NCBI RefSeq assembly: GCF_004010195.1
Contig: NC_057729.1
Span: 4,339,802 to 4,403,801 of the forward strand
Direction of reading: 5' to 3'
Source of the DNA: Chiloscyllium plagiosum
Taxonomy: Eukaryota
DNA length: 64,000 bases
The notes beneath the pieces are model-generated. The model was given only the letters and a program-made list of their open reading frames with translations, ran no database searches and was not told the origin of the DNA. Positions 7,920 through 60,700 of this stretch are shown here, piece by piece (within the stretch, counting starts at the first letter, position 1; each line of letters starts with the position of its first letter). The translations under genes and the position numbers were made by a program.

Positions 7920-8048
7920 ATTCCTGAAGAAGTGCTCATGCCTGAAATGTCAATTCTCCTGCTCCTTGGATGCTGCCTGACCTGCTGCACTTTTCCAGCA
8001 ACACATTTTCAGCTCTGATCCCCAGCATCTGCAGTCCTCACATTCTCC
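7920..8048 (+). mobile_element. Short Penelope-derived terminal-repeat insertion (degenerate hammerhead)
   Basis: 10-bp TSD TAAATGGCTC at 7910-7919 and 8049-8058; same family as 172-304. Confidence 0.85.
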
Positions 8049-8585
8049 TAAATGGCTCTGAATGGCAAGGGATGGCAATATAAATTCCTTACATTCTACC
8101 TGTAAGACAGAGACATCCCAGCCCAGCCTGAACATCCAATTTCCTGCAGGTCAGCAGAGCAAATTGAACCTTTAATATATCATTAGGCTAGATAGAACAG
8201 CAAAGGTATTTCGACCACATTATGACAGCTGGCTTTTGAAGTAATGAATAATAAGTGGTTCGTAGAGTTTACAGCACAAGCCATTACTCGGTCTATTACT
8301 CCAATAACTCCCAAGGCAGTTGGTACTCAATAGAGCAATGTCACGCTGGTGCAAGTCGAAGCTGCTGTCTGGAATTTGAAGACAACAATGCTCGGAGATT
8401 TCTGACCCTGCAGCTGACCCGGTCTATATCTATCCTGGGTAGGCTGACATTGAACACAAACACATTTGGAGACGGCCCTGTGCCCAGTAGGGACACTTGG
8501 TCCAGCAGTAAGCGCAGTATGGGCACGGGCATCAAGGGCCTAGGATCCAAATCAGCCTAACCCGAAACGCAATCCAGCAGTGTAC

Positions 8586-12809: not shown

Positions 12810-13020
12810 AAGATCGGGGAGTTATTCCGGATGTTTTGACCAATATTTATCCCTCCATCAATTTCAGGGAAGCAGATTATCTAATAATTTCACATTACCT
12901 TTGTAGGAGCTTTCAGTGGACAACTCGATTGCACTGTTCCTACATAAGTGACCATACTTCAAAATCACTTCACTGGCACTCTTAAATGTGATTGTGAAAG
13001 AAGCTACACAAATGCGAGTA
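12810..13020 (+). mobile_element. Old Deu-domain SINE (SacSINE1/AmnSINE-like) fragment
   Basis: ccaatatttatccctc...cagattatct...cttcaaaatcacttcactggc...aaatgcgagt resembles the Deu-domain core, recognised from memory. Confidence 0.6.
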
Positions 13021-13179: not shown

Positions 13180-14549
13180 GTAAGGAATCCCGCCACCCAG
13201 AGGATTTGATGTTGTCTATGCAACTGTCCATTGCACTGACTGAAAGTTTGAGGGGGAGAGAACCCAAGCACAAAGGTGTTGATCTTTTTGGAGAGAATCA
13301 TTGATCCCGTAGAACCATTGAGTAAGCTACAAATTATTAAAGATCTATGGGGTTAGTTGCTGTTCCATGCTGAGACAGCACGCCACTTTTATTTCACTTT
13401 TAACTGTTTGCTCTTAATTTCTCAATCTGACAGATGTGGTCTGCTGCACTGCCGTCTTTGATAGTCACCAGATTTCTACACTTAAAAGCTTCAGTCCCTG
13501 TTCTTTAAACTTCTAGGGTCTGAAAAATTGGTTTAAAAAATGCTGTCTGATTGGAGTAAAATAGCTGCTGTTTCAATGGCAAAAAAATCCATCGTTGAGG
13601 GACAGCCTTTTCTAAACCTTAAGAGATGAGTACTTTTCAAAAAGCTAAGTCTAAAGGCTGATAATTCAGACAAGAATGCAAAGTAGAAATGAAATATCAA
13701 GCTAAGTAAAAAAAAATCACAAACAGGATCTTGGATACTCTTGAGTTTTGCCATTTCTCTGCTCACCCATTCATTTTAACAGGCATGGACAGACGATTGT
13801 GGGCTGCTGAGTGCATCAGAAGATTATGATCTTGCTTAGAAATTAAAATCAGAATTTAAAAGTAGATAGCAAAAGAGGGAAGAGAAACAGCTGACTAAGA
13901 AGTAAAACAAAATGGTAACTTAACAAAGGCAATAGATAGATTAGGAAGTAAGGGATGAAAGTAGTCAATCAAATGTGACACTTGTATACCACTGCCAGAT
14001 ATATTCCAAGTAAAACAGAGGGATGAGAAGAATACATTTTAGTTCAGTATATGATGGGTAATAAAAGCAAAATGCTGGGAGTACTCCAATAGATTTGGAT
14101 GTGTATGAAAGAAAGAGTTAATATTTGAAGCTGATGGCCTTTTTTCCAGAGTTTTCAAATACAGCAACAGATGACCAGGAGATCCTGGATTTATGATACC
14201 AAAGAATTAATGATATTAAGAACACATCTTGAGGAAGTAGTATCCTTAAGATGAAGGAAAGGAGTATTACAAAGGGTTCGGATTTAAAACCACACCAACT
14301 TTGAAGGGAGAAGGAAGTAATTGGTAAGAATAGGATAGAGGAAATTATTTGCTGATACATTGGTCAACCAATAGCTGGATCTATTAACGGTATGTGTTAA
14401 TACTTCACACTCTCTCATCAAGAATCAGACATTTATGTCACAGGAGACTATTTAGCCCATTGTTTCTGTACTGGCTCTTTACTGCATCAATCCAAAATAA
14501 ATACAATTATACGCTTTCTCCTCATCTTTCCCTGCCTTGTAATATCTCT

Positions 14550-14827
14550 GGGACACCCGGACCAACCAACCCAACCACCCTGTAGCTCAACATTTCAATT
14601 CCCCCTCCCACTCCACCAAGGATATGCAGGTCTTTGGACTCCTCCATCGTCAGACCACAGCAAAACGACGGTTGGAGGAAGAACGCCTCATCTTCCGGCT
14701 AGGAACCCTCCAACCACAAGGGATGAACTCGGATTTCACCAGTTCCCTCATTTCCCCTCCCCCCAGTTCTCCTGTTCCCTAGATGCTGCCTGACCTGCTG
14801 CGCTTTTCCAGCAACACATTTCCATTT
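14550..14827 (+). mobile_element. Penelope-like element 3' fragment: GIY-YIG endonuclease C-terminus joined to the short terminal repeat
   Basis: Translates HPVAQHFNSPSHSTKDMQVFGLLH...LEEERLIFRLGTLQPQGMN, then gatgctgcctgacctgctgcgcttttccagc. 13-bp TSD TTGTAATATCTCT at 14537-14549 and 14828-14840. Confidence 0.88.
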
Positions 14828-15291
14828 TTGTAATATCTCTAGTCTGTCTTAAATACTGGAAGAGACCATTAAATATTTATTTAACTTTGTTGGAAGCTTT
14901 AGGCTGGGTTTAATGGAAGCAATATGGATCTAATCTTCTGGCTCAAAGAGCTCTGAGTTGCCTCTGTTCATGTAGGCCTTCCCCATTAAACAATAAGCAT
15001 GTAAGTGGTCGATAAGTTATTCTGGGATCAAAGGAGAATGTCCTGACGGCAGCTGGCCACTGAGGCCAGAAACTCTTCATTGCTTGGCAGTATCCTGGGA
15101 AGTGATGGCATGATGTGTGTTGCTATGGTGAAGGATGGTGTTTGTTTGACATTAATTGCCTTATTATCGACTTCAAATGGCAGTGTGAGGCTGTCCTTCA
15201 TCAGAGCAGAGGCAGGAAGGTCGCTGGGCTTCCACCCATCTACCGGATTAAATGATCCTCACCATTAACTCACTATAGAAAACACCATTAA

Positions 15292-17165: not shown

Positions 17166-18009
17166 CCATCTTTGTCTCCAACAGAAAATGAGGAGCTTAT
17201 GGATGTCTTGTTAGTATCTTCCGAACACTTGCAATTCCCCAGTTCAACAGGCCATCCACCTCTAAGGCCCAAGCTTCATTCTTGATGTCATTTTACATCT
17301 TTCCCTAGTTTCTCTCTCCTCACACCTTCCTGATCTCATCATGTCCATAAGGCCCACCTCTTGCTCCCTCAACCCTTTTTGATCAAATCCGCTAACCCCC
17401 ACAACTTCCCTTGGACTTATCCTAACTAGTAGAGTGACCAATTTTCTTCTCTGGGTATTGTTCCTCCCTCATGAAATCTGTTGTCATCACTCATCTGAAT
17501 AAGTCAACCCTTGATCCCACCACCCTTTCAAACTAACTGTCCATCTCCAAGCTCCTGTTCCTGTTCACAGTTGTTTAACATAATGTTACCTCCAAAACCC
17601 ATGTTCATATATACCAGAGTTTCATGCTTGAATTCTTCCAATCAAGTTCCTGGCCCTACTGCAGTATTGAATCATCTCCTATTATTCTTATAAATGAGTC
17701 AGAAACCTTCGTAACTCCTAATGTTTAAATAGTCACTTGTACTGCCATAGAGCCCAGCACTATGAGACAAAAACTGGAGAATACAATTAGGGCAGTGAGA
17801 GTGTGTGGACATGGTGGGCCAAATGGTTTCCCTCTGTGTTACAACATCTGAGTCTATAAATGACATCTATGTGATTATAAGAATGTTAAACCTTCTTTCT
17901 TTAACCTTCTCTACCTATCTGCAGCTTTTTACACCTTCAACACCTATTCACTGACCTGTAACTGCATTTGCTTAGTTCTGTACTTGTCTAAATTATACAG
18001 ATTTTTAGT

Positions 18010-19500
18010 CAGAGTCACAGCATGGAAACTGACCCTTTGGTCCATGCCAAATGAAATCCTAAACAAAATTAGTTCCACCTGCTCCTGGCCCATATTCCTA
18101 TTCATGTACCTATCCAAATGTCTTTTAAATGTTGTAATTGTACCCACATCCACCACTTCAGGAAGTTCATTCCACCTGTGAGCAACCCTCTGTGATTAAA
18201 AAAAAATTGCTTCTCATGTCTTTCTTCAAATCTCTCTTCTCTCTCCTTAAAAATGCGCCCATAGTCTTGAAATCCTCCATCCTAGGGAAAAACAACTATT
18301 ATTACCTCTATCTATATCTCTCATTATTTTATAAACTTTTATAGGTTGTGTCAACCTTCTATGCTTCAGTGGAAAAAGTCCAGGCTATTCAGCCTTTCTT
18401 TATAATTCAAACCTTCTGTATCCGGCCACATCCTGGTAAATCTCTTCTGAACCCTCTCCAGCTTAATAATATCCTTCCTATAACTGGGCAACCAAAACTG
18501 GACACAGTATTCCTGAAGAGGCCTCACCAATGTCCTGTACAACCTCAACATGATTTCCCAACTCCTATACTCAAAGGACCGAGCAAGAAGGCGAACATAC
18601 CAAATATCTTTTTAACCACCCTATCTGTATGTGATGCAAACTTCAAAGAATTATGTACCTGCTATTCTACAACACTCAAAAGGTCCTACCATTAATTGTG
18701 TAGATTAAAGTGGCGCTGGAAAAGCACAGCAGGTCAGGCAGCATCCGAGGAGCACCACTCTAATCTAGACTCTGGTTTCCAGCATCTGCAGTCCTTGTTT
18801 TTCGCCATTAATTGTGTAAGCCCTACCCTTGTTTGTACCAAAATGCAATACCTCACTTTATCCAGATTGAACTCTATCTGCCATTTTTCAGCCCATTGAC
18901 TCATCTGATAAAGATCCCTTTGTAATCTTAGAAAACCTCTTCACTGTCTATTATGCTACCCATTTTGGTGTCATCTGCAAACTTACTAACTATGCCTTCT
19001 ATATTCTCATCCAAATCATTTATATAAATGACAGACAAAACAAGACCCAGAACTGATCTCTGTGGAATACCGCTAGTGGCAAGTCTCCAGTCTGAAAAAC
19101 AACCCTCCACCACTTGTCTCCTGCTGTTAAGTCAATTATGCATCCAACTGGCGAACTTACCCTGAATCCCGTATGACCTAATGTTACTAATTAGTCTATC
19201 ATGCGGAACCTTGTCAAAGGCTTTACTAAAATCCAAATGAACAACATCTGCTCTGCCATCATCAATCTTTTTGTTACCTTCCTCAAAAGACTCAATCAAG
19301 TATGAGAGACATGAACCTTTCCTTTTTTGCCTCTAAATGTCCATAAATCTTATCTTTTATAATCATCCCCAACAATGTACCCACATCCAAAGTCAGACTC
19401 AGGTCTATAGTTACCTGGTTTCTCCTTACAACCTTTTTTTAAACAAAGGTACAACATGAACCACCCCCCAGTCATCAGGCACCTCACCTGTAGTTAAAGA
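18010..19500 (-). mobile_element. CR1 LINE fragment
   Basis: Minus-strand ORFs SGIPQRSVLG..YINDLD..SKFADDTK and YRTLVRPLQEYCVQFW. Confidence 0.9.
18703..18804. mobile_element. Short inverted Penelope terminal-repeat insertion inside the CR1
   Basis: 14-bp TSD CCATTAATTGTGTA at 18689-18702 and 18805-18818; inverted arm (gctggaaaagcacagcaggtcagg) followed by a direct tail (ccagcatctgcagtcc). Confidence 0.8.
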
Positions 19501-19529
19501 TGAGTAAATATTTATGCAGCTCCTGTACA

Positions 19530-19745
19530 GAGCTGAAAATGTGTTGCTGGAAAAGCGCAGCAGGTCAGGCAGCATCCAAGGAGCAGGAGAATCGACGTTT
19601 CAGGCATGAGCCCTTCTTCAGGAAGAAGGGCTCATGCCCGAAACGTTGATTCTCCTGCTCCTTGGATGCTGCCTGACCTGCTGCGCTTTTCCAGCAACAC
19701 ATTTTCAGCTCTGATCTCCAGCATCTGCAGTCCTCACTTTCTCCT
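19530..19745. mobile_element. Palindromic Penelope terminal-repeat insertion in tubulin intron 3
   Basis: 92-bp inverted arms 19528-19619 and 19622-19713 plus a 32-nt tail; 15-bp TSD TGCAGCTCCTGTACA at 19515-19529 and 19746-19760. Confidence 0.9.
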
Positions 19746-20713
19746 TGCAGCTCCTGTACACCCCAGATGTTCCCCAGAGATCTCTTTTTGCCCCTGTAGT
19801 TCTCATGCTGTCCTCAGCAACATCATCTTTTGACACAGTTTGTTTTCATATGTAAACAGATTACACTACTCTCCCCCACACCCCTTTCTCAGCTACTACA
19901 CTAGTGCTAAATTATAAGACTGCTTGTCTCAGGTGAGCACAAACTTCCACCAATCGCTCATTGGGAGGAATTAGGTGAATGCCTTTGATTTCTGTTCTCA
20001 ACGCCAACCTTCTGTATTTCAACAGCTGGGGCTGAACCAGACCTTAGTGATATTAGTTTTTGATCAAAAATCTATGATCATTAAGACTATTTTTACCTCT
20101 GCAACAGTGCCAAGTTATACCCCTGACCCTTGCTCACCTGTTACTGAAACCCCCTCATCCATGTCCTTGATATCTTTAAACCCAACTATTCTAAGGCTTC
20201 CCAAATTCTTTAAACCTGGGGTAATTCAAAATTCTGCTGTCCTTCTCCTTGCACTAAGTTCCATTCACCCATCACTTCTACATTTGCATTAGCTCCTGGT
20301 CAAGTACTGTCTCAATTTAAAAATTCTTGTTCATTTCAAAGACCTCCTTGGCTGCCTTCATTTCTGTAATCTCTTGAGGAACACAATTTACAAAGCATCT
20401 GCCCTCATCCAATTCTGACTTCCTGAGCATCCCTAATTGGAATTTCTCCACCATCATTGGCTGTTCAACATCTATGCCTCACTTTTTTTTTTCCCCTCCA
20501 GATTCTCCTTAAAGCCTATCTCTCTTGCTATTTGTATTTGCTGTTCATGTTGCATATATGATAGGTAATCATATGAGTCAGGCAAAAAGGACTGTTGGCT
20601 TCTGCGGAATTGTACTACCGTGTGCAAGGAAGACCTGAAGAAAATCAACCCTTCAAACATAATATTTTCAACATAGTAGTAATCAGAAATAAAAATGATT
20701 GTATAAAAATTAG

Positions 20714-21844
<1,131 letters not shown>

Positions 21845-22130
21845 GTATGGTGGGATCATCAAGAAGCCTCTCTATTGGAGAGAAAGTTGTTTTGAGTCAA
21901 CTATTGAATTCTGCTGATTCTTCCAGCCATTTAATTAAGAAGACATTGTGATGCTAATGGAAATGGAATTCCTTTTTGAAGGTTTGTGTGTGTGGTTTAA
22001 TATGATCTGTAGTTTTAAAACAATAGTGCCCACAGTAGGCTATGTTCTGAAATTCAACTTTATGAACTGGCCTGAAAAGTCTTATCCTGCAGCTGCTGAA
22101 CCTGTCTGAGTACCTTGTTTTAGTTTGTTA

Positions 22131-22345
22131 AGAAAAAGTGAGGTCTGCAGATGCTGGAGATCAGAGCTGAAAATGTGTTGCTGGAAAAGCGCAGCAGGTC
22201 AGGCAGCATCCAGGGAACAGGAGAATCGACGTTTCGGGCATAAGCCCTTCTTCCTGAAGAAGGGCTTATGCCCGAAACGTCGATTCTCCTGTTCCCTGGA
22301 TGCTGCCTGACCTGCTGTGCTTTTCCAGCAACACATTTTCAGCTC
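22131..22345. mobile_element. Palindromic Penelope terminal-repeat insertion downstream of the tubulin stop
   Basis: 92-bp arms 22162-22253 and 22256-22347 with a 31-nt tail on the left; 15-bp TSD TGTTTTAGTTTGTTA at 22116-22130 and 22346-22360. Confidence 0.92.
22251..22285 (+). ncRNA. Minimal type I hammerhead ribozyme motif (PLE-associated)
   Basis: CTGAAGA-A-GGGC(TTAT)GCCC-GAAA-CGTC with an intact core; stem I is weak in this copy. Confidence 0.6.
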
Positions 22346-22383
22346 TGTTTTAGTTTGTTAGATTGGTAATTTGTGTGCTTCTA

Positions 22384-29736: not shown

Positions 29737-30020
29737 CAAAACCGAAAGAACTGCAGATGTTGTAAATTAGAGACAAAAATAGAAATTGCTGGAAAAGCTC
29801 AACAGATCTGGCAGCATCTGTGGAGAGAATCAAGAGTTAATGTCTTGGGTTAAGTGACCCTTCCTCAGAACTAAATAAGCTCTGGCAGCATCTGTGTAGA
29901 GAATCAAGAGTTAACATTTTGGGTTGAGTGGCCCTTCCTTAGAATTGAATAAACTCTGATTTCCCTACACAGATGCTGCCAGAGCTGCTGAGCATTTCCA
30001 GCAATTTCTATTTTTGTCTC
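29737..30020. mobile_element. Inverted PLE terminal repeats of a second family with an internal ~70-bp tandem duplication and degenerate hammerheads on the minus strand
   Basis: tctggcagcatctgtg..gagaatcaagagttaa..tgacccttcctcagaact occurs twice, followed by an inverted arm ending ctatttttgtctc. Confidence 0.78.
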
Positions 30021-38900: not shown

Positions 38901-39266
38901 AGGAACAATTGGTGTCAATTTTGATGGTCATTGAAGGTTTTCATTTTACTGCATTGTAAATACAGGGATAAGGAGGCTGATTTGATTTGGCTGCTGTCTT
39001 CGTGTTGGAGCTGATGTTGAAGATTAAAATGTTGAATGAAAACACTTTGGTAGGGCTAATGGGTTCCCACTTACAATGTCTACTCTCCATGTTTCCAAAT
39101 TTGGTGTATTTGCAAGGTCTTAAGCACTAGATTGCTAGTTCAAGCAGAGGGTAAAAGGTTTACTAATTTGAGCAAGAGGACAGTGGTGTTGCTGATGAAC
39201 TGTAAGAGCTCTACGGTTCCAGCAACAACTATTAAGGTAATAAATTGTCCTTTTTTTGCAGCGAAG

Positions 39267-40454
39267 ATGAATCGAGACTTGAAGTATTGGAAGGAAGCAG
39301 CTACTGTCATCTTGGCTTCAAGTGTACGAAATTGCTTTGGGAATAAAGATTCCACCAGCACACAGGCTAGTTGGCCTCCACGTTCGGTACTTAAACAAGA
39401 GAGAAATGTAATTCACTCATTGGTGGAGAAGACTGTCTTTGATTATGCTGTACTTATGTTACAGCGGAGTGCAAAAAGCAGTTTCTTGCCTCATGCTCAG
39501 GTATTCCCTGGAGGTATGGTCAATCCGTCTGATTTTTCCAGTGAGTGGATTCAGATGTTTCAGCCCTTTTGCAAGCCACCTAACTTTAAACTTGGTATAG
39601 TCAGGCAAACCTCCAAAAGAGCTCCAATTTTTGCAACGGACAGGAGAAAGCTAGGATCTGAAATCCCTGGAGAGGTGGCTTTCCGTATTTGCGCTGTTAG
39701 AGAAACCTTTGAAGAATCAGGGATTCTACTTGTGAAGCCAAATGCCCCTGAAACATGTTTGAGCAGCCAAGGAGCCATAAAGCTCACACAGTACGACCAA
39801 AAGGAACTTGCAAATTGGAGGCCACTTGTGCAGAAAAATGCAGCAAATTTTATAAAGCTTTGCAAAGAGCTGGACTGTATACCAAATATTTGGGCATTGA
39901 AAGAGTGGAGTAATTGGTTAACTCCCACTTACTTGGAGAGAAAGCGTTTTGATACTGCATTCTTCATCTGTTGTTTGCAAGAGATTCCTTTCACATTGCA
40001 AGATGGTTATGAAACTGTTTTCTACAATTGGATGTCCCCACCTGATTTTATTAAAGGCCACAATTCAGAGAAATTCTACATCCCTCCCCCGCAGTGGTAT
40101 GAACTGAACAGACTCTGCCAAATGCCCCATTTCCAAGATCTGCAGCAGTTTAGCCAGCATCGGGCATTGGAAGGCTGTGAGCGATGGCTTCCAGTCCGTT
40201 TCCTTGCTTCTGATGGTTATGCAATTTTGTACCCTGGGGATGACCTTTATCCAGAGGATCCTGATTACACAGGAGAAAAGAAGATGAACGTCAGTTCCTC
40301 AAAAACTCTGGAACAATTGAGGTTAGAGGTTACCAAACTAAATCGCGCAGAGCTGAGAGGTCTGCATGGCATAACACTGTACGTGAATATTGAGCCGCAG
40401 TATAAACATCTCCATCCACTAACTATGGGGTCATGTCAAAACTGTCACCTGTAA
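39267..40454 (+). CDS. NUDT19: Acyl-CoA diphosphatase NUDT19-like, copy 1 (395 aa, intronless CDS)
   Basis: Starts MNRDLKYWKEAATVILA; LQRS..S.FLP.A.VFPGG, Nudix box AFRICAVRETFEESG, WSNWLTP, RFDTAFF, PPPQWYEL. C-terminal CHL fits PTS1. Acceptor tttttttgcag 5 nt before the ATG; AATAAA at 40486. Confidence 0.93.
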   Translation: MNRDLKYWKEAATVILASSVRNCFGNKDSTSTQASWPPRSVLKQERNVIHSLVEKTVFDYAVLMLQRSAKSSFLPHAQVFPGGMVNPSDFSSEWIQMFQPFCKPPNFKLGIVRQTSKRAPIFATDRRKLGSEIPGEVAFRICAVRETFEESGILLVKPNAPETCLSSQGAIKLTQYDQKELANWRPLVQKNAANFIKLCKELDCIPNIWALKEWSNWLTPTYLERKRFDTAFFICCLQEIPFTLQDGYETVFYNWMSPPDFIKGHNSEKFYIPPPQWYELNRLCQMPHFQDLQQFSQHRALEGCERWLPVRFLASDGYAILYPGDDLYPEDPDYTGEKKMNVSSSKTLEQLRLEVTKLNRAELRGLHGITLYVNIEPQYKHLHPLTMGSCQNCHL

Positions 40455-43322: not shown

Positions 43323-44143
43323 CTGGAAATTGTCAATATGGTGGAGGGCATCAGACGAATTGCGGAACTAGGTGGGCAGACTTTGGACAAGCGGAGAGAG
43401 GAAATCGGCTTGGTGGGGCAGGAACAGACTGTTACGATGGGCCTAAGGGGGCAGTCTGGCTTGTTGATTTTAGGAAGGAGGGAGAAGCGAACTGACTGGG
43501 ATTGAGCGACTACAAAGTTGGAGGAAGTGGGAGGAAGATCTCGGGAGGTAAAGAGGTTGGTGACAGTCCTGGCAACAATGGCTTGATGTTTGGATGTGAG
43601 GAAGTATCCGAGAGTTGCCTTTAAGTCTCTGCAAAGTAAAGATCAGTGCACCAGATTACACCAGCACCATGTCTTTTGGCGGGTTTGTTAAGAAAGTTAA
43701 GGTTGGGTCTGAGAGAGAACAATGTGGCAATTTCAGAAGGAGACAGGTTAGAGTGGGTGAGAGAAGCAGAGAAATTGAGACAGCTGAGGTCATGTCAGCA
43801 GTTTGCAATGAAGAGATTGAGGGCAGGTAAGAGATCAGGAGAAGGGTTCCAAGTGGTGGGTGAAAGGGATCAGTGGAATGCGGGTGGGGGTTGCGGGTTG
43901 GAAGGCCCCTGCCCAATAAAGTGAAAACGGAGATGAAAGGGCTGGGACAAACAGTTCAACATCATGGTGAGCTGGAAATTCATTAAGGTAGAGGTATAAA
44001 GGTGTGAAGCCTAGTTCTTTTCTGGGAATGACCTTGTGACTGTCAACGGATGTTAATACAATTGTGAGCCAATTATGTCACCCTTCAATGGAATGCTTGC
44101 TTTCTATCTTTAAAAAGATTAAAGTACACTGTTTTCATTATAA

Positions 44144-44341
44144 GGAGAAAGTGAGGACTGCAGATGCTGGAGATCAGAGTCGAGAGTGTGGTGCTGGAAA
44201 AGTAGAGCAGGTCAGGCAGCATCTGAGGAGCTGGAGAATCGATGTTTCGAGCAATAGCACATCCTGCCTGAAACGTTGATTCTCTTGCTCCTCAGATGCT
44301 GCCTGACCTACTGTGCTTTTCCAGCATTACACTCTCGACTG
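44144..44341. mobile_element. Older palindromic Penelope terminal-repeat insertion
   Basis: Inverted arms around about 44250; imperfect TSD TGTTTTCATT(A/G)TA at 44130 and 44342. Confidence 0.82.
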
Positions 44342-46559
44342 TGTTTTCATTGTAAGTTAATTCATTCCCCTTGCAACAATAAATTCTTGCTCTGCATCCT
44401 GTCCACAGCATCATAATGGATTACGTGCAGGATTACGTGCAGGCTGTGCTTATATGAATCAAATTTCAATTTGCAAGGGGCATTGATCTTTTAGAGAAGT
44501 AGAGGGTCTATACTTTGTTGATTGACTCCTGAAACCTATCCAGCTTAAGTTCCTACTTTCTAGAGGTTATGTTCTTCTCAGAGGGTGACGAATAGGTTCA
44601 GTGCTATTTACACAGCTCCATACAATCCATACTTGACTGTGTATGGAAATCACTGCCCATCAAAGTAGTCTACAACAAAAACATAACCAGAAGCCATATA
44701 CAACTGAAAGAGACCACGGGACTATCGAACGGTGTGCTATATTTGTGCCAAGTTTTAGCTTGTACAGAAGATTGACACTTATGCATCCAAAATGCCTTTG
44801 CCTTGGTGCCACCTTCGCAGCCACACCTGAGTTTGAAGAGGTCTGCTGACTGTTTTGTTGGCTTGCCTCAGATGACTTTGGTGGGCATACACTGGAGCCT
44901 AGAGGTCTGTTGCTTAGGTGCAGGTATAACCTTCTTGGCCTGATCTGATAGAAGAGTTTGGGTTCCTGGCTGAGGTGAGATAGTGTAGCAGACCACCTCT
45001 GGATTGTCCTGAAATGACAATCCCTAAATGCCTGTCTTTTGCTCCTTTTACCTGCTGGAGCACAATGGCATTTTCTTGCCCTTCAAGGAGGTGGTTACCT
45101 GGAGGGAGGTCAAGATCCCTCAGCCCACTGTTGTCTAGCCAGTGAATGAATGCATGCATAGCTCTAGCAATACTGTGAAGGTCCTTGCACATATCCATCA
45201 AATACTGATTGTTCTGCTAGACCGATCTCTGCATGGTGGCCATCACTATTCCATGGAGGCAGTCCAAAGCCACAATAAGACAAAACCTGAGCAGGCTCCT
45301 TGGCCCTTCACTGTAGTCTGTGCATGATTTCTATCACCGCTGCCAGATGTTCACCTCCTTGTCCATGCATATCCACCAGCTCAGTAATTGCTGAGTTTGG
45401 GGCTCTTATTCTGTGCTGTACTCCAGTAGTTTTCCGAGTGTCAGAAACCTCACCTGTCTCTTCGTCCTCAGTTTACAGGCCCATATCAGTGCTGTGCTCA
45501 CCACAATGTGACTCCAAACTTTGTTACATAGATTACCCACTGAAGTGAATGTTTCTGCACTGGTGGAGGTTGGTGGCATCCTGTTGGAGATGGCAAAAAT
45601 GACAGTGTATGATGCTTTGAATGCAGAGGCAGGTAAATGGGGGGGGGGGGGGGGGGGGCATTCTCCCAGTCCTCTGTCCATCTCACCTGTTCTGATGATC
45701 CTATTTCTTTTACATTAGATGGGCACAATCAGGCAAATAAACTACCCTAGTGATTAAATTGATCATATTTCAGACTTGTAATGACTTGTGGAACAGTGAG
45801 GCTTGATTTGCAGTACATTATTCCCACTAGGGTTCTACCTCTCTGCATGCATATGTAATTGCCCAATAAAATGTGACCTATCTGAGTGGAAATATGTTGC
45901 AATTTAAGCTCGACTCCACTAAAAACTAAAGATTCTGTTCATTGTTTCTGAACCAGCAATCTGAAAATAGAATGTTATTTTATTCAATAGGTTTTAGTAA
46001 GGCAGTTTTAGAATTAAGTTTGCAGGTGACCATTAAATCCCATGCTTCAAGAAGAGAAAGCATCAATACTGTATTAAAAAAAAAGCCTTGATTATATTGG
46101 TTAGCACAGGGTTAAGGTTTGTTAAAGGGTACAAATTAATAATGAAGCAACAAATCAGCTCTATCATTATAATGCATTAACAAGGTGGACAAAATGAACC
46201 ACAAGGAACAGCTATTAATGGTAATAACATTGAGCAAACAGTTTTGAATGTTTATTTGTTAATTTTAAAGCTCACATTGAAATTCTATTTCTTTTGCTTA
46301 ATAGTGAAACAGTTGTGAGCAATTTTTGACAGTCATGCATGCAGTTTAGGAAACTTAACAAAAGCTGATGGATCCAAACAGTCTTTGCAACAAATCTTGT
46401 AACGGGGGGTTACAAGAGTTTGGACTCAATAAATAGCAGGGTAGTGGCTTATCATAAATTCAGATACAAGTATTATCCAACTTGCCAGTATTTTTACAAC
46501 AGGGGAATAATACTTGGCTCTAATTTTTATAAGAAGAATTATATCTTCAATACTGTGTA

Positions 46560-50514: not shown

Positions 50515-51900
50515 TTCATATAACATACCACAACACGGTACAGGCCCTTCAGCTGTTGATGTTGTGCTGACCTTTTATCCTCCTCTAAGATCAAACTAAC
50601 CAACATACCCTTCATTACGCTATCTTCCATATGCCTATACAAGAGTTGCTTAAATGTCCCAATGTATCTGACTCTACTACCACCACTGGCAGTGCATTCC
50701 ACGCACCCACTACTCTCTGTGTCAAGAACCTACCTCTGACATCTCCCCTAAACCTTCCTCCAATCACCTTAAAATTATACCCTCTCGTTATAGCCATTTC
50801 CACGCTGGGAAAAAAGTCTCTGGCTATCCACTCTATCTATGCTTCTCATCATCATGTACACCTCTATCAAGTCACCTTATCCTTCTTCGCTTCAATGAGA
50901 AAAGCCCTAGTTCCTTCAACCTTGCTTCATAAGACATGCCCTCCAGTCCAGGCAGCATCTTGGTAAATCTCGTCTGCACTCTCTCTAAGGCTTCCACATT
51001 CCTTCCTATAATGAGGCAACCAGAACTTAACACAATATTCCAAGTGTAATCTAACCAGGGCTGTACAGAGCTGCAGCATAACCTTGTGGCTCTTAAACTC
51101 AATCCTCCCCTGCTAATGAAAGCCAATACACCATATGCCTTCTTAACAACCCTATCAACTTGGGTGGCAACTTTAAGGGATCTATGGACATGGACCCAAG
51201 GTTCCTCTTTTGCTCCGCACTGCCAAGAATCCTGCCTTTACCCCTATATTCTGCATTCAAGTTCAACCTTCCAAAATAAATCACTTCACTCTTTTCCAGG
51301 TTGAACTCCATCTTCCGCTTATCAGCCCTGCTGTGCATCCTGTCAATGTCCCGTTGCAACCTACAACAGATTTCCACACTATCCATCACTCCACCAACCT
51401 TGGTGTCATCAGCAAACTTACTAATCCAATCTTCTGCTTCCTCATTGCAAGTCATTTATAAAAAACACAAAGAGCCAAGGTCCCAGAACTGATCCCTGGG
51501 GAACAGCACTGGTCACTAAATACTATGGGCCAACAATTATGTATCCAGACAGCCAGATTTCCCTGTATCCCATTCCTCCTCACTTTTTGAATGAGCCTCT
51601 AGGGGGAACCTTATCAAGCGCCTTGTTAAAATCCATGAATATCACATCCACTGCTCTACCATCATTAATGTGTTTTGTCACATCCTCAAAGAATTTAGTA
51701 AGGTTTGTGAGGCATGACCTTCCACTCTCAAAGCCATGCTGATTTTCTAATCAAGCTGTGGTTTTCCAAATAATCATAAATTCTGTCTGTCAAAGTTCTC
51801 TCCATAAGTTTTCCCACCACAGACATAAGACTGATTGATTGGTCTGTAGTTATCAGGATTATCCCAACTCCATTTCTTGAACAAGGGACTAACATTTGCT
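50515..51900 (-). mobile_element. CR1 LINE, 3' part; continues at 54488-54615 and about 55455-56080
   Basis: SKFADDTK, ERVQTRFTKMLPG, FLTQRVVGAWN. The PDDWRAANVSPLFK motif is split across the 51901-54474 insertion. Confidence 0.9.
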
Positions 51901-51993
51901 GGAGAAAGTGAGGTCTGCAGATGCTGGAGATCAAAGTTGAAACTTTATTGCTGGAACAGCACAGCAGGTCAGGCAGCATCCAGGGAACAGGAG

Positions 51994-52029
51994 ATTCGAC
52001 GTTTCGGGCACAGGCCCTTCTTCAGGAAT
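51994..52029 (-). ncRNA. Minimal type I hammerhead ribozyme motif
   Basis: Minus strand reads ATTC-CTGAAGA-A-GGGC(CTGT)GCCC-GAAA-CGTC-GAAT. Confidence 0.7.
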
Positions 52030-52244
52030 GAGCAGAGAGTGTTCAGCAGGAGAAGATAAAAGGTAGGGAGGAGGGACTTGGAGGAGGGGCGTTGGAAATG
52101 TGATAGGTGGAAAGAGGTCAAGGTGAGGGTGATAGGTCGGAGTAGGATGGAGGCGGAGAGGTCAAGAAGAAGACTGCAGGCCAGGAAGGCGGTGCCGGGC
52201 TGGAAGGATCCCTTTTATCTTCTCCTGCTGAACACTCTCTGCTC

Positions 52245-52280
52245 ATTCCTGAAGAAGGGCCTGTGCCCGAAACGTCGAAT
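52245..52280 (+). ncRNA. Minimal type I hammerhead ribozyme motif
   Basis: ATTC-CTGAAGA-A-GGGC(CTGT)GCCC-GAAA-CGTC-GAAT: stem I AUUC/GAAU, palindromic ACGU stem III, predicted GUC cleavage after 52276. Confidence 0.72.
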
Positions 52281-53214
52281 CTCCTGTTCCCTGGATGCTG
52301 CCTGACCTGCTGTGCTGTTCCAGCAATAAAGTTTCAACTTTGATATCCAAATGAATCCAACAAGAACTGGACCAAGCATATGTGGTACTCATAATCTTCT
52401 TCATCCTAAGTATACGCATGATTTTACTACAACTGCTAAGTATTTCATCAGTAATATTTTCAGCAACATAACACAAAACATCGCAGATAAGAAAAACTGC
52501 AGCATATTAACATGCCAAATTTCCCCTAAAGTAAATGCATTAAAATTCCATCAAATTTGACAATATTGTTATGTATTTGGCTTTAAGGGGTTAACACGTA
52601 GGGGGTTCCATACAACAGCCAAGCAGGGTGAGATCAATAGTTGTGATGTTGAGAAGATATGCTCTTCTTCATTAGGGTAAATAAAACCACAGAAAGTAGA
52701 CAAAATCAAACACAAAATATTGCTGAGGAAAGGAGTGAACAAAGACAGAAATGGGAACTATTTAAATGTAAATCTATGATTCGCTCCAGTAATAATATCT
52801 AACAATATTCAATATCTAGGATCATACCAAAAGAGTACTTTGAAGTATTAAAGGGATTTTCTGCTATCTAGTGATCTCTGAGGCATGAAGTTTCCCTTTC
52901 TTGATATGTGCAAGATCAAGACAAACACTAGGCATACAGTAACAGTGATATCACCGCAGGGAGTTGGCAGCCAATTACACTGAAGTATTCTCAAACAGCA
53001 AATCAGAAAGTAAAATGCAGTAAAATCTTCTACTCAATTAAAATTTCCACAGAGTAAATACAAATCATCAGTGATACACATGGGATTAAAGTAGCTGAAA
53101 TATCATAACTTTTTTTTAAATTTGAAAAAAACATTATTGCCATAATAATGGCAAAAAAGCATCCCAGTGATATAACATTAGATTTCTATGAGTAACTATT
53201 GAGTTATTAAAATT

Positions 53215-53750
53215 AAATTGCATTTATATAGTAACTGTTATGGCCACAGAAAGATCCAAAATGCTTTACAGCCAATAAAGTACTTTGGAAGTACAGTCAG
53301 TGTTGACACATAGCAGGCAATTTACATGTAGCAAGCTCCCACAAAAAGAAATGCTGTACTAATTATTGAAAAAATATTGACTATGACACCTGGAACAACT
53401 TTCTCATCAGTGGTGAGGTTCTGGAACCCACGAGTTCAAAGGGTAATACAGGCAAAAACCATAATCACATTAAAACATGCGGTGGAACAGTCAATGGGTT
53501 TAGGAATCAAAATTTGGAGAGTGGGATTAGTGTGACGAGGTATTCATCGACTGGTATGGACATAATGTGCCAGACGACTACCTTCTGTGCATGAAATCTT
53601 ACTGTGTTTTCTATGTATCTATAACTCTTATTAAAAATAGTGCCATTGGCTCTTCTATGTCTACATTAGAGGACAGACAGGCCTTCACTTAGTAGGCTCT
53701 CGTCAAAAAGATAGCAGCTTAAATCTTCCAACTTCCCTCACTGGATTGGA
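53215..53750 (-). mobile_element. Old Deu-domain SINE interrupted by a plus-strand CR1 3' fragment (about 53405-53620)
   Basis: ttgcatttatatag..gctttacagccaataaagtacttt..gcaagctcccacaaa..aaatagtgccatt. Confidence 0.65.
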
Positions 53751-54095
53751 ATGTGTTGCTGGAAAAGCGCAGCAGGTCAGGCAGCATCCAGGGAACAGGA
53801 GAATCGACGTTTCGGGCATAAACCCTTCTTCAGGAATGAGGAAAGTTTGTCCAGCAGGCTAAGATAAAAGGTAGGGAGGAGGGACTTGGGGGAGGGGCGT
53901 CGGAAATGTGATAGGTGGAAAGAGGTCAAGGTGAGGGTGATAGGCCAGACTGGGGTGGGGGCGGAGAGGTCGGGAAGAAGATTGCAGGTTAGGAAGGCGG
54001 TGCTGAGTTCGATGGATTTGACTGAGACAAGGTGGGAGGAGGGGAAATGAAATTTTCAGCTCTGATCTCCAGCATCTGCAGACCTCACTTTCTCC
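53751..54095. mobile_element. Inverted PLE terminal repeat plus direct tail (sister subfamily) inside the composite
   Basis: Inverted arm 53751-54050 with a minus-strand hammerhead near 53800-53840, then tttcagctctgatctccagcatctgcagacctcactttctcc. Confidence 0.8.
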
Positions 54096-54382
54096 TAGCC
54101 ATAGTGAAGCCACACAGTGTCTAACTCAATGACTCGTCTCTGGTAAATACGAACGTTGTTGATCTCCTCTTGTGTTGAAATCAGAAACAGACATGAAGGT
54201 GACAATTGGAAGCCACGCACCGCCTTCCTGACCTGCAGTCTTCTTCTTGTCCTCTCCGCCTCCATCCTACTCCGACCTATCACCCTCACCTTGACCTCTT
54301 TCCACCTATCACATTTCCAACGCCCCTCCTCCAAGTCCCTCCTCCCTACCTTTTATCTTCTCCTGCTGAACACTCTCTGCTC

Positions 54383-54418
54383 ATTCCTGAAGAAGGGCCT
54401 GTGCCCGAAACGTCGAAT
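54383..54418 (+). ncRNA. Minimal type I hammerhead ribozyme motif
   Basis: Identical to 52245-52280; predicted cleavage after 54414. Confidence 0.72.
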
Positions 54419-54634
54419 CTCCTGTTCCCTGGATGCTGCCTGACCTGCTGTGCTGTTCCAGCAATAAAGTTTCAACTAACATTTGCTGCCCTCCAATCAT
54501 CTGGCAGTACTCCAGTGGATATTGAAGATGCAAAGATGGAACAATTTTTTTCTCTCATCCTGTAGGAACCTTCTGGCCCAGGGGACTTATCTCTCCTTAT
54601 GCTTTTCAAAACTTTCAGCACAACGTTCTAGGCA

Positions 54635-55455
54635 CCAACCCAAACGTAAGTTTGTTCACTGAGCTGGAAGTTTCTTTTACAGATGTTTCATCACAATACT
54701 GGTTAACATCATCAGAGAGCCTTGGCGAAGCACTGGCGTTAGTGACCCACTTTCTATTTATGTATTTAGGTTTCCTTAGGTTGATGATGTCATTTGCTGT
54801 GATGATGTCATTTCTTGTTCTTTTTCTCAGAATGTGGTAAATGGGGTCCAAATTGATATGTTTGTTGATTAGAGTTCAGGTTGGAATGCCATGCTTCTAG
54901 GAATTCTCGTGCATGTCTCTATTTGACTTGTCCTAGGATAGATGTGTTGGCCCAGTTAAAGTGGTGTCCTTCCTCATCTGTGTGTAAGGATACGAGTGAG
55001 AGTGGGTCATGTTTTCTTGTGGCTAGTTTTCTGCCTGTTTGCCTAATGTAGTGTTCGTTACAGTTCTTGCAAGCTATTTTGTAAATGACAATAGTTTTGC
55101 TTGTATGAAGTCTTTCCTTAGCTGCTGGTTTAGTGTATTGGTGGATTTGTGGGCTACCATGAGACCAAGAGGTCTGAATAGTCTGGCAGTGATTTCCAAG
55201 ATGTCTTTGATGTAGGGGAAAGTGGCTAGGGTTTCTGGACGTTTTGTCTGCTTTTTGGGTTTGTTGCTGAGAAGTCAGCAGACTGTGTTCATTGGGTACC
55301 CATTCTTTTTGAATATGCTGTACAGGTGATTTTCCTCTGCTGTTTGTAGTTCCTCTACAGTGTGTGGTGGCTCATTGAAATAATAATTTAAACAGTTTTG
55401 TTTGTGGGTGTTGGGATGATTGCTTCTATAGTTCAGTATTTGGTCTGTTTGTATT
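54635..55455 (-). mobile_element. Penelope-like element of a different clade (Penelope/Poseidon-like), 3' part with its own degenerate hammerhead
   Basis: Minus strand: LNYRSNHPNTHK, EENHLYSIFKKNGYP, LPYIK, YKIACKNCNEHYI.QTGRKL, AREFLEAW; then CTGATGATGTTAAC...GTGATGAAACATC at about 54680-54716. Confidence 0.85.
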
Positions 55456-56443
55456 GTATTCCTGTAGACGCTTCAGCTGTGATACTATCCCTGATTAGCA
55501 ATGCCACCCCCCACCATTCCTTTTGAAACAGCCAACAACCATTCCTGTCCCTGTGATATCCAAGTCTCCATGATGGACACAACATCATAGTACCAAGTAC
55601 TGATCCATGCTCTAAGTTTGTCACCCTTATTCCTGACCCTTCTTGCGTTAAAATCGATGCACCCTTCAACCCATCTCACTGACTGCACCTTTGCCCTATC
55701 AATTGTCTGTCCTTCTTCACAGACTCTCTGTATGCTGTATCTGGCTTCTCACAACCTACTCCATCATCTGATCCGTAGCTCTGGTTCCCAACCCCTTACC
55801 AATCTAGTTTAAACCCTCCCAATCAGTTGCAGCAAACCGCCCATCCAGGATATTGGTGCTCCTCCAGTTCAGGTGCAACCTGTCCTTCTTGTACAGGTCC
55901 CATCTTCTCCAGAAGGTATCCCAATGATCTACATATCTGAAGCCCTCCCTTCTACACCAGTGCTGTAGTCACGTGTTCATCTGTACTTGCTGTCTGTTTC
56001 TAGCATCACTAGCCTGTGGCATTAATAGCAATTTTGAGATTCCTACACTGCTTGTCCTGCCTTCTTGCTTAACTCCCATGTTACACAATGCACTGCCCAA
56101 TTTGACTGTTCAGGAGTTGAAATCCAGATCTGTGATCAAATTTCCACAAGCACAATTGTTGTGTATTATTTTGATTGAGATTGGCGGATCTTGCAGAGTT
56201 GACCAGATTGGATTATGGAGTGTTGTTGGGTGGGGGTTGGGGGCGTGGGGGGCAGTACGTAAGCTTTCTAGTAAATCTGCTGTTTTTGCGAGTTCCTTAT
56301 GGAAGATTTGAGCCCTCTATGTTAGAAAGTGTTGGGGTTGTTGGTGTGAGCAAGAAGACATTAGGATTGCTGATGAGCTGTAAGAGCTCTACAGTTCCAG
56401 CAACAAGTAATAAATTAATAGATTGTACCTTGTTGCAGCAAAG

Positions 56444-57628
56444 ATGAATCGAGACTTAAAGTATTGGAAGGAAGCAGCCACTGTCATCTTGACTTCAGGT
56501 GTTCGAAATTGCTTTGTGAATAAAGATCCCAGTACACAGACTTGTCAGCCTCCACGTTCAGTGCCAAAACAAAAGAGAAATGCAATTCACTCGTGGTTGG
56601 AGAAACCTGTCTTTGATTATGCTGTACTTATGTTACAGCGGAGTGCAAAAAGCAGTTTCTTGCCTCATGCTCAGGTATTTCCTGGAGGTACCGTCAGTCC
56701 GTCTGATTTTTCCAGTGAGTGGATTCAGATGTTTCAGCCCTTTTGCAAGCCACCTAACTTTAAACTAGGTATAGTCAGGCAAACCTCCAAGAGAGCTCCA
56801 ATCCTTGCAACGGACAGGAGAAAGCTAGGATCTGAAGTCCCTGGAGAGGTGGCTTTCCGTATTTGTGCTATTAGGGAAACTTTTGAAGAATCAGGGATTC
56901 TACTTGTGAAGCCGAATACCCCTGAAACATGTTCAAGCAGCCAAGGAGCCATAAAGCTCACACAGTACGACCAAAAAGAACTTGCAAATTGGAGGCTGCT
57001 TGTGCAGAAAAATGCAGCAAATTTTATAAAGCTTTGCAAAGAGCTGGACTGTATACCAAATATTTGGGCATTGAAGGAGTGGAGTAATTGGTTAACTCCT
57101 ACTTACTTGGAGAGAAAGCGTTTTGATACTGCATTCTTCATCTGTTGTTTGCAAGAAATTCCTTTCACATTGCAAGATGATTATGAAACTGTTTCCTACA
57201 ACTGGATGTCCCCACCTGATTTTGCTGAAGGCTACATTTCAGAGAAATTCTACATCCCTCCCCCGCAGTGGTATGAACTGAGCAGACTCTGCCAAATACC
57301 CCATTTCCAAGATCTGCAGCAGTTTAGCCAGCATCGGGCATTGGAAGGCTGCGAACGATGGCTTCCAATTCGTCTTCTTGCTTCTGATGGCTCTGCGATT
57401 TTGTACCCTGGGGATGACCTTTATCCAGAGGATCCTGATTACACAGGAGAAAAGCAGATGAACATCACTTCCTCAAAAACTCTGGAACAATTGAGGTTAG
57501 AGGTTACCAAACTAAATCGCGCGGAAGTGAGAGATTTGCATGTTATAATACTGTACGTGAATATTGAGCCCCCGTATAAACATATCAATCCACTAATGGT
57601 GAACCCAATACTTTCCAGTTATCTGTAA
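56444..57628 (+). CDS. NUDT19: Acyl-CoA diphosphatase NUDT19-like, copy 2 (394 aa, intronless CDS)
   Basis: Close paralogue of 39267-40454; Nudix box AFRICAIRETFEESG; acceptor ttgttgcag ends at 56438; C-terminus SSYL. Confidence 0.93.
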   Translation: MNRDLKYWKEAATVILTSGVRNCFVNKDPSTQTCQPPRSVPKQKRNAIHSWLEKPVFDYAVLMLQRSAKSSFLPHAQVFPGGTVSPSDFSSEWIQMFQPFCKPPNFKLGIVRQTSKRAPILATDRRKLGSEVPGEVAFRICAIRETFEESGILLVKPNTPETCSSSQGAIKLTQYDQKELANWRLLVQKNAANFIKLCKELDCIPNIWALKEWSNWLTPTYLERKRFDTAFFICCLQEIPFTLQDDYETVSYNWMSPPDFAEGYISEKFYIPPPQWYELSRLCQIPHFQDLQQFSQHRALEGCERWLPIRLLASDGSAILYPGDDLYPEDPDYTGEKQMNITSSKTLEQLRLEVTKLNRAEVRDLHVIILYVNIEPPYKHINPLMVNPILSSYL

Positions 57629-57734: not shown

Positions 57735-60700
57735 AATTAGAACATTACAGCGCAGCACTGACCCTTTGGCCCTTGATGTTGCACCCACCTGTTGAACCAA
57801 TCTGAAGTCCATCTAACCTCTACTATTCTATTCTTGTCCATATGCTTGTCCAATGACCATTTAATTGCCCTTAGAGTTGGTGAGTCTACTTCTATTGGAG
57901 GCAGTGCATTCCATACCCCTACTATTCTGAGTACAGAAACTAGCTCTGACATCTGCCCTATATCTATCGCCCCTCAATTGAAAGCTATATCCACTTGTGC
58001 TAGCCATTGCCATCAGAGGAAAAAGACTCTCACTGTCCAACCTATCTAACCCTCTGATTATCTTATGTCTCAATTAAGTCACCTCTCCACCTTCTCTCTA
58101 ACGAAAACAGCCTCACGTCCCTCAGTCTTTCCTCGTAAGACCTTCCCTCCATTCCAGGCAACATCCTAGTAAATCTTCTCTGAACCCTTTCCGAATCCTT
58201 CTTATATTGCAGTGACCAGAACTGTACACAGTACTCCAAATGTGGCCGCACCAGAGTTTTGTAAACTGCAGGATGATCTCATGGTTCCAAATCTCAATCC
58301 CTCTACCAATAAAAGCTAATGCACCGTATACCTTCTTAACAACCCTATCAACCTGGGTGGCAACTTTTAAGGATCTGTGTACTTGGACACAGAGATCTCT
58401 CTGCTCATCTACACTACCAAGAATCTTACCATTAGCCCAGTAATCTGTATTCCTGTTACTCCTTCCAAAGTGAATCACCTCACATTATTCTGCATTAAAC
58501 TCCATTTGCCACCTTTAAGCCCAGCTCTGAAGCTTATCTATGTCTCTTTGTAATCGATAACATCCTTCATTACTATCCACAACTCTACTGACCTTAGTAT
58601 CATCTGCAAATTTACTAACCCATCCTTCTAATTCCTCATCCAGGTCATTTATATAAATGACAAACAACAGTGGCCCCCAAAACAGATCCTTGCGGTACCC
58701 TACTAGTAACTGAACTCCAGGATGAATATTTCCCATCAACCATCACCCTCTCTTTTCTGATCCAAACCATTAAATCACCCTCAATCCCATGCCTCTGTAT
58801 TTTGTGCAATAGCCTACAGTGGGGGAACCTTATCAAATGCCTTACTAAAATCCATATACACCACATAAGCCCACTTTTCCCTCATGCACATTTGGTCACC
58901 TTCTCAAAGAATTCAGTAAAGGTTGTGAGGCATGACCTACCCTTCACAAAACCATGTTGGCTATCCCTAATCAACTTATTCATCTCTTGTAACCCTTTCC
59001 AACACTTTACCCACAACCGAAGTAAGGCTTCCAGGTCTATACTTTCCAGGGTTGTCTCTACTCCCCCTCTTGAACTAGGGGACAACATTTGCTATCCTCC
59101 TGTCTTCTGGCACTATTCCTATAGACAATGATGACATAAAGGTCAAAGCCAAAGGCTCGCAATGTCATCCCTGGCTTCCCAGTGAATCCTAGGATAAATC
59201 CCATCCGGACCAGGGGATTTATCTACTTTTCAGAATTGCTAACAAATCCTCCTTATGCACCTCAATCCCATCTATTCTAGTAGCTATATCAAAGTATTCT
59301 CCTCAACCACACTGTCTTTTTCTAGTGTGAATACTGAAGAAAGGTATTCATTTAGTGCCAACCATAACTCCCCTGACTCCATGCACAACTTCTCACCACT
59401 ATGCTTGATTGGCCCTAAGCTTACTCTAGTCATTTTTTTATTCCTGATATAGCTACAGAAAGCCTTAGGGTTTTCCTTGATCCTATCCGCCAATGACTTC
59501 TCATGCCCCCACCTGGCTCCTCTTAGCTCTCTCTAGGTCCTTCCTGGCTAATTTGAAACTCTGAAGTGCCCTAACTGATCCATCACATCTCATCCTAACA
59601 TAAACCACCACCTTCCTCTTCATTAGTAAACCACGGCTCCCATGCTCGACAACTTCATTCCTACCTGACCGGTACATACTTGTCAATGACCCGCAGTAGC
59701 TGGTCCTTGAATAAGCTCCACATTTCAATTATCCCCATCCCCTGAAGTTTCCTTCCCCATCCTATGCATCCTAAATCTTGCCTAATTGCAACATAATTGC
59801 CTTTCGTCCAGCTATAACACTTGCCCTGTGGTATATACCTATCCCTTTCCATCTAACCAAATTGTGGTCACTATCACCAAAGTGCTCAGCTATCTCCCAA
59901 ATCTAATACCTGGCCAGGTTCATTACCTAGTACCAAATCTAATGTGGCCTCGCCCCTTGTTGGCCTGTCGACATACTGTGTCAGGAAACCCTCCTGCACA
60001 CATTGGACAAAAACTGACCCATCTAAAGTACTTAAAGTATTCCAGTCAATATTGGGAAAGTTGAAGGCCCCCATAACAGCTACCCTGTCACTCTTGCCTC
60101 TAATGAGGATTATCTTTGCTATCCTATCCTCTACATCTCTGGAACTATTTGGAGACCTATAGAAAACTCCCAACAAGGTAACTTCTCTCCTGTTTCTAAC
60201 CTCAGCCCATACTACCTCCAGTAGATGAGTCCTCAAATGTCCTTTCTGCAACTGTAATACTGTCCTTGACTAACAATGCCATACCTCTTTTACCATTTTC
60301 TCTGTTCTTACTGAAACATCTAAATCCTGGAAGCTGCAATAACCATTCCTGTTCCTACTCTACCCATGTCTCTGAAATGGCTGCAACATCAAAATCCCAG
60401 GTACCAACCCATTCTGCAAGTTCATCCACCTTATTCCATATGCTCCTGACGTTGAAGTAGACACACCTCAAACCAACTTCTTGCCTGCCAATGCCTTCTT
60501 GTGATCTTGAAGTATTAGTTCTGACTTCATTACTCTCATCCTCCCGTATACTCGAACTACAATTTCGGTTCCCACCCCCCCTGCTGAATTAGTTTAAACC
60601 CACCCAAAGAGCATTAGCAAATTTCCCCTCCAGGCAAATTTCACCTCTGGTTCAGGTGAAGACCATCCTGTTTGTAGAAGTCCCACCTCCCCCAAAAAGA

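Follow-up and report, generated by a model that had tools for sequence, protein, structure and literature searches.

A composite insertion interrupts a LINE at a 14-bp duplication

The window, by which we mean the whole 64-kb stretch of DNA analysed, contains a large tubulin coding exon on the plus strand (20714-21844), presumably of beta-tubulin, and two NUDIX-domain genes with single-exon ORFs at 39169-40422 and 56347-57596, which we take to be NUDT19-like. The two NUDIX genes are 92% identical and lie 17 kb apart; their homology is confined to the ORF and ~90 bp upstream, and each has an acceptor-like site before its ATG and a CpG-rich patch 7-8 kb upstream.

The insertion described here lies in a minus-strand LINE, which we assume to be of the CR1 type. 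Its RT-coding part to the left of the insertion (50683..51887) was recognised by BLAST to paralogs in the window (63-70%) and by a tblastn match to RT at 51445-51516, and the LINE resumes in register and in frame at 54489..54628, again on the minus strand. The 14-mer ACTAACATTTGCTG was found exactly twice in the 64-kb window, at 51888 and 54475, and forms the left (51888..51901) and right (54475..54488) copies of a target site duplication (TSD), both given on the plus strand. The final base of the left copy is shared with the repeat of a Penelope-like element (PLE) that follows it. By chance, an exact flanking repeat of at least 10 bp was obtained for 3 of 2000 random boundary pairs. The left flank of the LINE (51602-51900) aligns to a paralog at 58821-59093 and the right flank (54478-54535) to 59084-59141 of the same paralog. 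The two flanks overlap there by the duplication alone and rejoin both in DNA and in the minus-strand reading frame (...DDWRAANVS / ANVSPLFKK). The LINE is therefore cut exactly at the duplicated sequence, as a preliminary description of this DNA had claimed. The duplicated NUDIX gene region excludes the insertion site, so that it offers no empty paralog. Two independent insertions flanking resident DNA were rejected, because the TSD is confined to the outer ends and the two halves of the LINE directly adjoin each other.

The same LINE carries a second, unrelated PLE fragment on the minus strand at 54629-55440, 140 bp to the right of the TSD. Its translation and a weak tblastn match identify a GIY-YIG C-terminus, and it has its own hammerhead-like motif from 54715. 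A TSD was looked for around this fragment and none was found.

Three near-identical PLE arms lie between the duplications

The left part of the composite is an inverted PLE terminal repeat (pLTR) of 309 nt on the minus strand (51901..52209), of which ~51901-51934 is the optional tail. It is followed by a middle direct arm on the plus strand (52211..52344), corresponding to element positions 147-280, and, beyond the cargo, by a tailless right direct arm on the plus strand (54217..54477), corresponding to element positions 15-275, whose final 3 nt are common to the right TSD. The order inverted, partial direct, cargo, final direct is thus the one initially described, and the near-identity claimed for the arms was borne out. 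They are 99-100% identical: no position differs over 134 bp, and over 261 bp two do, namely substitutions at 54231 and 54250 between the right and inverted arms. Six bases are common to the three arms and absent from all 10 other arm sequences aligned. The identical direct-repeat stretch on either side of the predicted hammerhead cut is 129 bp long.

At each of its ends the inverted arm extends beyond both direct arms. It alone has the tail, giving the one-sided 30-40 bp tail of endonuclease-bearing PLEs, and on the 5' side it includes 14 nt of the element that the right arm lacks. These 14 nt match the sister repeat described below at 9 of 14 positions, and also align to the 3' UTR of a related PLE near 17.0 kb; against the end of the cargo they match at only 5 of 14. 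Because the tail and the 14 extra 5' element bases are without counterpart in the direct arms, at least two templates must have been used. The alignments indicate that the inverted arm was copied neither from the cargo-joined repeats nor from a cut-and-ligated circle. The middle arm ends 2 nt beyond the tailless end of three sister arms, and the 5 nt past it (to 52349) resemble the tail with one mismatch, which amounts to near-homology at the start of the cargo. This end looks like a primed 3' end rather than read-through.

The arms belong to an endonuclease-bearing PLE family with sister copies in the window

A sister copy at 14456-14830 retains the end of an ORF that encodes a GIY-YIG C-terminus. 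The best relatives of this fragment are shark and skate proteins, with a maximum of 88% identity (Chiloscyllium punctatum). Among four relatives fetched, RVT_1 matches were found in three and GIY-YIG in all four, mostly below the Pfam curated cut-offs. The combination of RT with a GIY-YIG domain at the C-terminus is thus found for the family through this sister copy and not at the composite locus, where tblastn with four related proteins detected no PLE coding sequence within 51901-54477. The ORF end of 14456-14830 aligns with the sister repeat of the cargo at the 5' end of that repeat, and we therefore read the arms, from sequence, as belonging to an endonuclease-bearing (GIY-YIG) PLE, of which they form the 3' UTR and terminal repeat. 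In the 14456-14830 copy itself the ORF end abuts the final part of the terminal repeat, and ~250 bp of UTR and the hammerhead are missing.

The window is densely populated by short copies of the PLE repeat family to which the arms belong, bearing TSDs of 10-15 bp (19528-19748, 22129-22347, 44143-44343, 18707-18800, 176-303 and 7916-8050). When eight copies other than the composite were tested, leaving out the one at 63.3 kb, TSDs of 10-15 bp were found in six; the two misses are weak, as the 14.7-kb copy was tested from inside the ORF and the 29.8-kb copy is of a more distant family. Three copies (19528, 22129 and 44143) form hairpins without cargo whose 3' ends face outwards, one tailed and one tailless, and the outer ends of the composite are the same as theirs. 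The other copies in the window are 80-91% identical to the composite arms. The more distant PLE-type repeat, at 29785-30005, has a short internal direct duplication between inverted ends. Rfam matches of the microRNA type proved spurious and correspond to hairpin copies of the PLE repeat, and a Pfam search at E 0.1 with five short repeat-derived peptides left four without a match and gave the fifth one sub-threshold match.

The cargo is non-coding host DNA with decayed repeats

The direct arms enclose ~1.87 kb of host DNA, made up of 1404 bp, a sister-subfamily repeat and 113-119 bp, in agreement with the sizes first given for it (~1.4 kb, a sister repeat and ~115 bp). The cargo begins with AT-rich DNA (33% GC; 52345..53200) that has no copy elsewhere in the window. 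A heavily decayed interspersed repeat, putatively a Deu-type SINE, follows at 53200..53390. It has a paralog at 12895-13018, and none of 300 shuffles reached the score of the piece 53190-53395 against it. Next comes a probable decayed LINE 3' end on the plus strand (53390..53625), with a marginal paralog at 17737-17843 (nhmmer E 0.004; score 80 against a shuffle maximum of 82.5), and then a possible continuation of the decayed SINE (53626..53748), for which the window holds no paralog. Continuity of the SINE across the LINE piece was not significant, as 120 of 1000 random pieces were equally good. Of the proposal that the cargo holds a SINE split by a CR1 end, the decayed repeat at 53190-53395 therefore stands, while the LINE end is marginal and the continuity of the SINE lacks significance.

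The sister-subfamily PLE repeat has its body on the minus strand (53749..54050), 88-90% identical to the arms and 98% identical to the copy at 22.2 kb, and its tail on the plus strand (54050..54097), inverted relative to the body. Body and tail are nearly non-overlapping inverted halves, as in twin priming. No TSD was found flanking 53749-54097, although the 98%-identical copy has one. Because a sister repeat without a TSD lies inside it, the cargo may not have come from a single uninterrupted stretch of the donor and may itself have been rearranged. A 7-mer shared by positions 53745 and 54205 was considered as an internal TSD and rejected, since words of at least 7 bp were shared in 210 of 995 random window pairs. 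The final 119 bp (54098..54216) have no copy in the window and no window paralog that could make them the end of the decayed SINE.

No coding capacity was found: across the entire cargo the stop-free frames do not exceed 92 codons. Sensitive BLAST and nhmmer searches of the 64-kb window, a weak test, found neither a donor nor a second copy. There is likewise no TSD between the end and the start of the cargo, as would be expected from circular permutation around one donor copy; the longest shared word is 5 bp. Compared with the arms, which scarcely differ from one another, the decayed cargo repeats have drifted much further from their paralogs. The cargo is therefore older than the arms, as had been proposed.

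The hammerheads are predicted to be silent at this site

Two identical minimal type I hammerhead cores lie on the plus strand at 52249..52276 and 54387..54414, with predicted cuts after 52276 and 54414. Their identity and their spacing of 2138 nt confirm the preliminary description, which did not include two further cores on the minus strand, in the inverted arm (51998..52025) and in the sister repeat (53833-53806). Core 1 has 4-bp stems I and II, an extra base after A9, a palindromic ACGU and no loop III. The features of PLE minimal hammerheads are all found: the extra base between 9 and 10.1, the G10.1-C11.1 pair, the palindromic 15.2-16.2 and a short helix I. Helix II is 4 bp here compared with the 7-8 bp given for Schistosoma. 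Rfam searches of the window (E up to 1) and of 52200-54500 (E up to 10) detected no hammerhead family. Just after the cut (52277 and 54415) the three-arm subfamily has A, which makes stem I a perfect 4 bp, and the 10 other arm sequences have T.

The preliminary description had proposed that transcription across the composite could release a ~2.1-kb RNA. The loop-III-less plus-strand cores can act only as a pair, and standard base pairs suffice to draw the double hammerhead from two 44-nt pieces, at -14.3 kcal/mol. The insertion site probably lies within a plus-strand intron, as judged from its sequence surroundings. Because it is situated between a CpG-rich patch at ~49.5 kb and the acceptor-like site before the NUDIX ORF at 56.4 kb, the likely transcript is read-through from upstream. 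Each plus-strand core has an antisense partner upstream of it. In the predicted fold of the read-through RNA, 26 and 28 of the 28 core bases are paired with antisense arms: core 1 is fully paired (28/28) once transcribed from upstream, and the antisense sister repeat pairs with 26 of the 28 core bases of the downstream hammerhead. Forcing the active double hammerhead would cost ~173 kcal/mol in the read-through RNA and 70 kcal/mol if the RNA starts at the middle arm, compared with 20 kcal/mol if pairing by the sister repeat is disallowed. The figures are equilibrium predictions for RNAs of 2-3 kb and take no account of proteins, but the margin is large. The literature points the same way. Minimal PLE hammerheads are reported to cleave weakly (PMC4209133), hammerhead cleavage of a PLE is reported to need protein, with mainly uncleaved RNA as the insertion template in vitro (PMC11167929), and one of nine predicted Xenopus dimers is reported to cleave in vitro (bioRxiv 10.64898/2026.07.22.740005). 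Although both cores are intact and the site is probably intronic, we therefore regard it as highly improbable that transcription today would yield a linear or circular RNA of 2138 nt by double hammerhead cleavage, and the proposed release of a ~2.1-kb RNA found no support. On this reading the hammerheads would be passive components of the repeat and are probably silent at this site.

Discussion

The composite has a target site staggered by 14 bp, element 3' ends that face outwards on both sides (tailed on the left and tailless on the right), near-identical arms and an unrelated, older cargo. Because of the TSD, the continuity of the LINE, the near-identity of the arms and the family rules seen in the sister copies, the placement of host DNA as a unit by one PLE-driven event is supported at the level of sequence. 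This upholds the corresponding claim of the preliminary description, for which there is a precedent in Adineta vaga (PMC3846280). We lean towards a single, recent and probably one-off insertion by a GIY-YIG PLE, with capture of host DNA through template jumping. The TSD together with LINE continuity, the TSDs of 10-15 bp in six of eight copies and the cargo-free, outward-facing sister hairpins all speak for it. The element protein would have nicked both strands and started two cDNAs, as we picture for ordinary sister insertions. The left cDNA would have copied 309 nt of element RNA. The right cDNA would have copied 261 nt, jumped to a host template, copied 1.87 kb of it and then returned to element RNA at the normal tailless start site for 134 nt. 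The return could have been a re-initiation, or the donor transcript could already have begun in a young copy. At least two templates would have been in use, and the two cDNA ends would have been joined at 52210. Frangieh et al. (PMC11167929) report that in vitro a PLE protein cuts the two strands and extends each of them; it is modelled as a dimer, and the tail is defined by two internal sites on the RNA at which it initiates. Because initiation is reported in the same source to require no homology, the microhomologies at the junctions add little. L1 is described as making analogous chimeras with host RNA (PMC13174262). The captured template may have been RNA or DNA, and no donor locus was found within the window. 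As a counterpoint to a single event, both substitutions fall in the part shared by the inverted and right arms only. A hand calculation puts the chance of this at ~0.16, and the placement mildly favours a later exchange.

Such an exchange is the core of one alternative, in which a plain two-arm hairpin was inserted first and a DNA circle or repair template carrying one repeat and the cargo later recombined into its direct arm, duplicating that arm. Deleting one direct repeat and the cargo does restore a normal sister-type hairpin with its TSD, and both substitutions lie within the part attributable to the incoming copy. Near-perfect inverted repeats are also prone to breakage. Yet this route needs two rare events and a second copy with ~99% identity, when the other copies in the window are 80-91% identical, and the TSD that an integrated donor should have left between cargo end and cargo start is missing. 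We therefore consider it rather unlikely. We also judge unlikely, if slightly less so, the insertion in trans of a pre-existing non-autonomous element of the form repeat-cargo-repeat, transcribed elsewhere and perhaps circularised by its hammerheads. It is the mechanism proposed for the A. vaga cargo (PMC3846280), and 129-bp direct repeats that are identical on either side of the cut are what the copying of more than one unit of a circle would give in the model described in PMC4209133. Against it, the inverted arm with its tail and 14 extra bases cannot be derived from such an RNA or circle and would require a second template anyway, the other copies that it predicts are not represented by a second cargo in the 64 kb (a weak test), and the downstream hammerhead core is paired with the antisense sister repeat.

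Two further readings are less probable still. It is quite unlikely that the composite is one copy of a multi-copy, kb-sized, non-autonomous shark PLE family that spread by means of a hammerhead-cut, protein-assisted 2.1-kb circle assembled together with master-element RNA in a dimeric particle. If it were, abundant young shark PLE repeats would routinely shuffle kb pieces of host DNA, and the two-template model of PLE insertion would be open to testing on natural junctions of this kind. An assembly artefact, in which the assembler looped through the identical 129-bp repeats and drew the segment from another locus, we hold to be very unlikely. The geometry is that of a repeat loop, the window has a scaffold gap (a 506-base N run at 4311-4816), and PLE structures are reported to disturb short-read assemblies (PMC8557442). 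However, the identical stretch is just 129 bp, every junction is clean and obeys the family rules, and a repeat-cargo-repeat segment must exist somewhere regardless.

Capture of host DNA by a PLE is already known from a rotifer, and the composite extends it to a vertebrate. Our literature search, whose scope did not extend to most subscription journals or to repeat databases, found no vertebrate or shark case of PLE-driven host-DNA capture. The steps of PLE insertion after priming are described as still unvalidated (PMC11167929). As a natural record the composite is clean: its target site is staggered by 14 bp, it shows two start sites, and the lengths of its arms call for no fewer than two templates. 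Its effect on the host is probably nil, with a non-coding cargo and a possibly unique locus, and it would matter more if such captures prove frequent.

Comparison with known systems

The preliminary description likened the composite to a retrozyme. Plant LTR retrozymes are described as having type III hammerheads, ~350-bp LTRs, Ty3-gypsy motifs, a 4-bp TSD and a spacer of 600-1000 nt (PMC4918200). The composite resembles them in its two hammerhead-bearing direct repeats around non-coding DNA, and departs from them in its minimal type I motif, 14-bp TSD and 1.87-kb cargo. Metazoan non-LTR retrozymes are reported as tandem units of 150-450 bp, with family consensus lengths of 51-972 bp, mostly canonical type I hammerheads and abundant small circles (PMC7229834; bioRxiv 10.64898/2026.07.22.740005). 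The type I hammerheads in a direct repeat, the non-coding spacer, the PLE origin and the long TSD are shared with the metazoan type. In contrast to that type, the unit is 2138 bp rather than below 1 kb (the repeated part being 129 bp), the hammerhead is minimal rather than canonical, and it is probably blocked by antisense arms. In size, hammerhead type and TSD the composite thus falls outside the retrozyme definitions in these sources, and its layout is instead the ordinary inverted and partial-tandem arrangement of PLEs (PMC8557442). The analogy is accordingly not retained; the resemblance reflects shared PLE ancestry of the repeat.

The usual insertion of an endonuclease-bearing PLE, as described by Craig et al. 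(PMC8557442), consists of partial-tandem pLTRs with an adjacent inverted, 5'-truncated copy and a tail at one end, and the composite has partial-tandem pLTRs with such an inverted copy. It is like canonical PLEs, including Poseidon of Anolis (PMC11167929), in the arrangement of its arms, the one-sided tail, the minimal hammerhead within the repeat and the outward-facing 3' ends; it differs from the canonical form in PMC8557442 in that host DNA, 1.87 kb long, occupies the place of the ORF. As in the L1 chimeric insertions described in PMC13174262, a retrotransposon and unrelated host sequence arrived together. The enzyme class is different, however, and an L1 insertion has a single 3' end, primed at poly(A), where the PLE has two internal start sites.

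The closest parallel is the host DNA mobilised by PLEs in A. vaga, where the cargo is both coding and non-coding, as in the Pen3a pLTR-NRPS insertion and the Pen1 spacers (PMC3846280). There, as here, host DNA lies between two direct pLTRs together with one inverted pLTR, the whole unit is inside a TSD, and no PLE coding sequence is present. The host here is a vertebrate of shark type, the cargo consists of decayed repeats rather than a gene, the TSD is 14 bp compared with 8 bp in A. vaga, and LINE continuity alone stands in for an empty allele of the A. vaga type. Beyond that precedent, the composite has an inverted arm that is longer than both direct arms, pointing to two templates.
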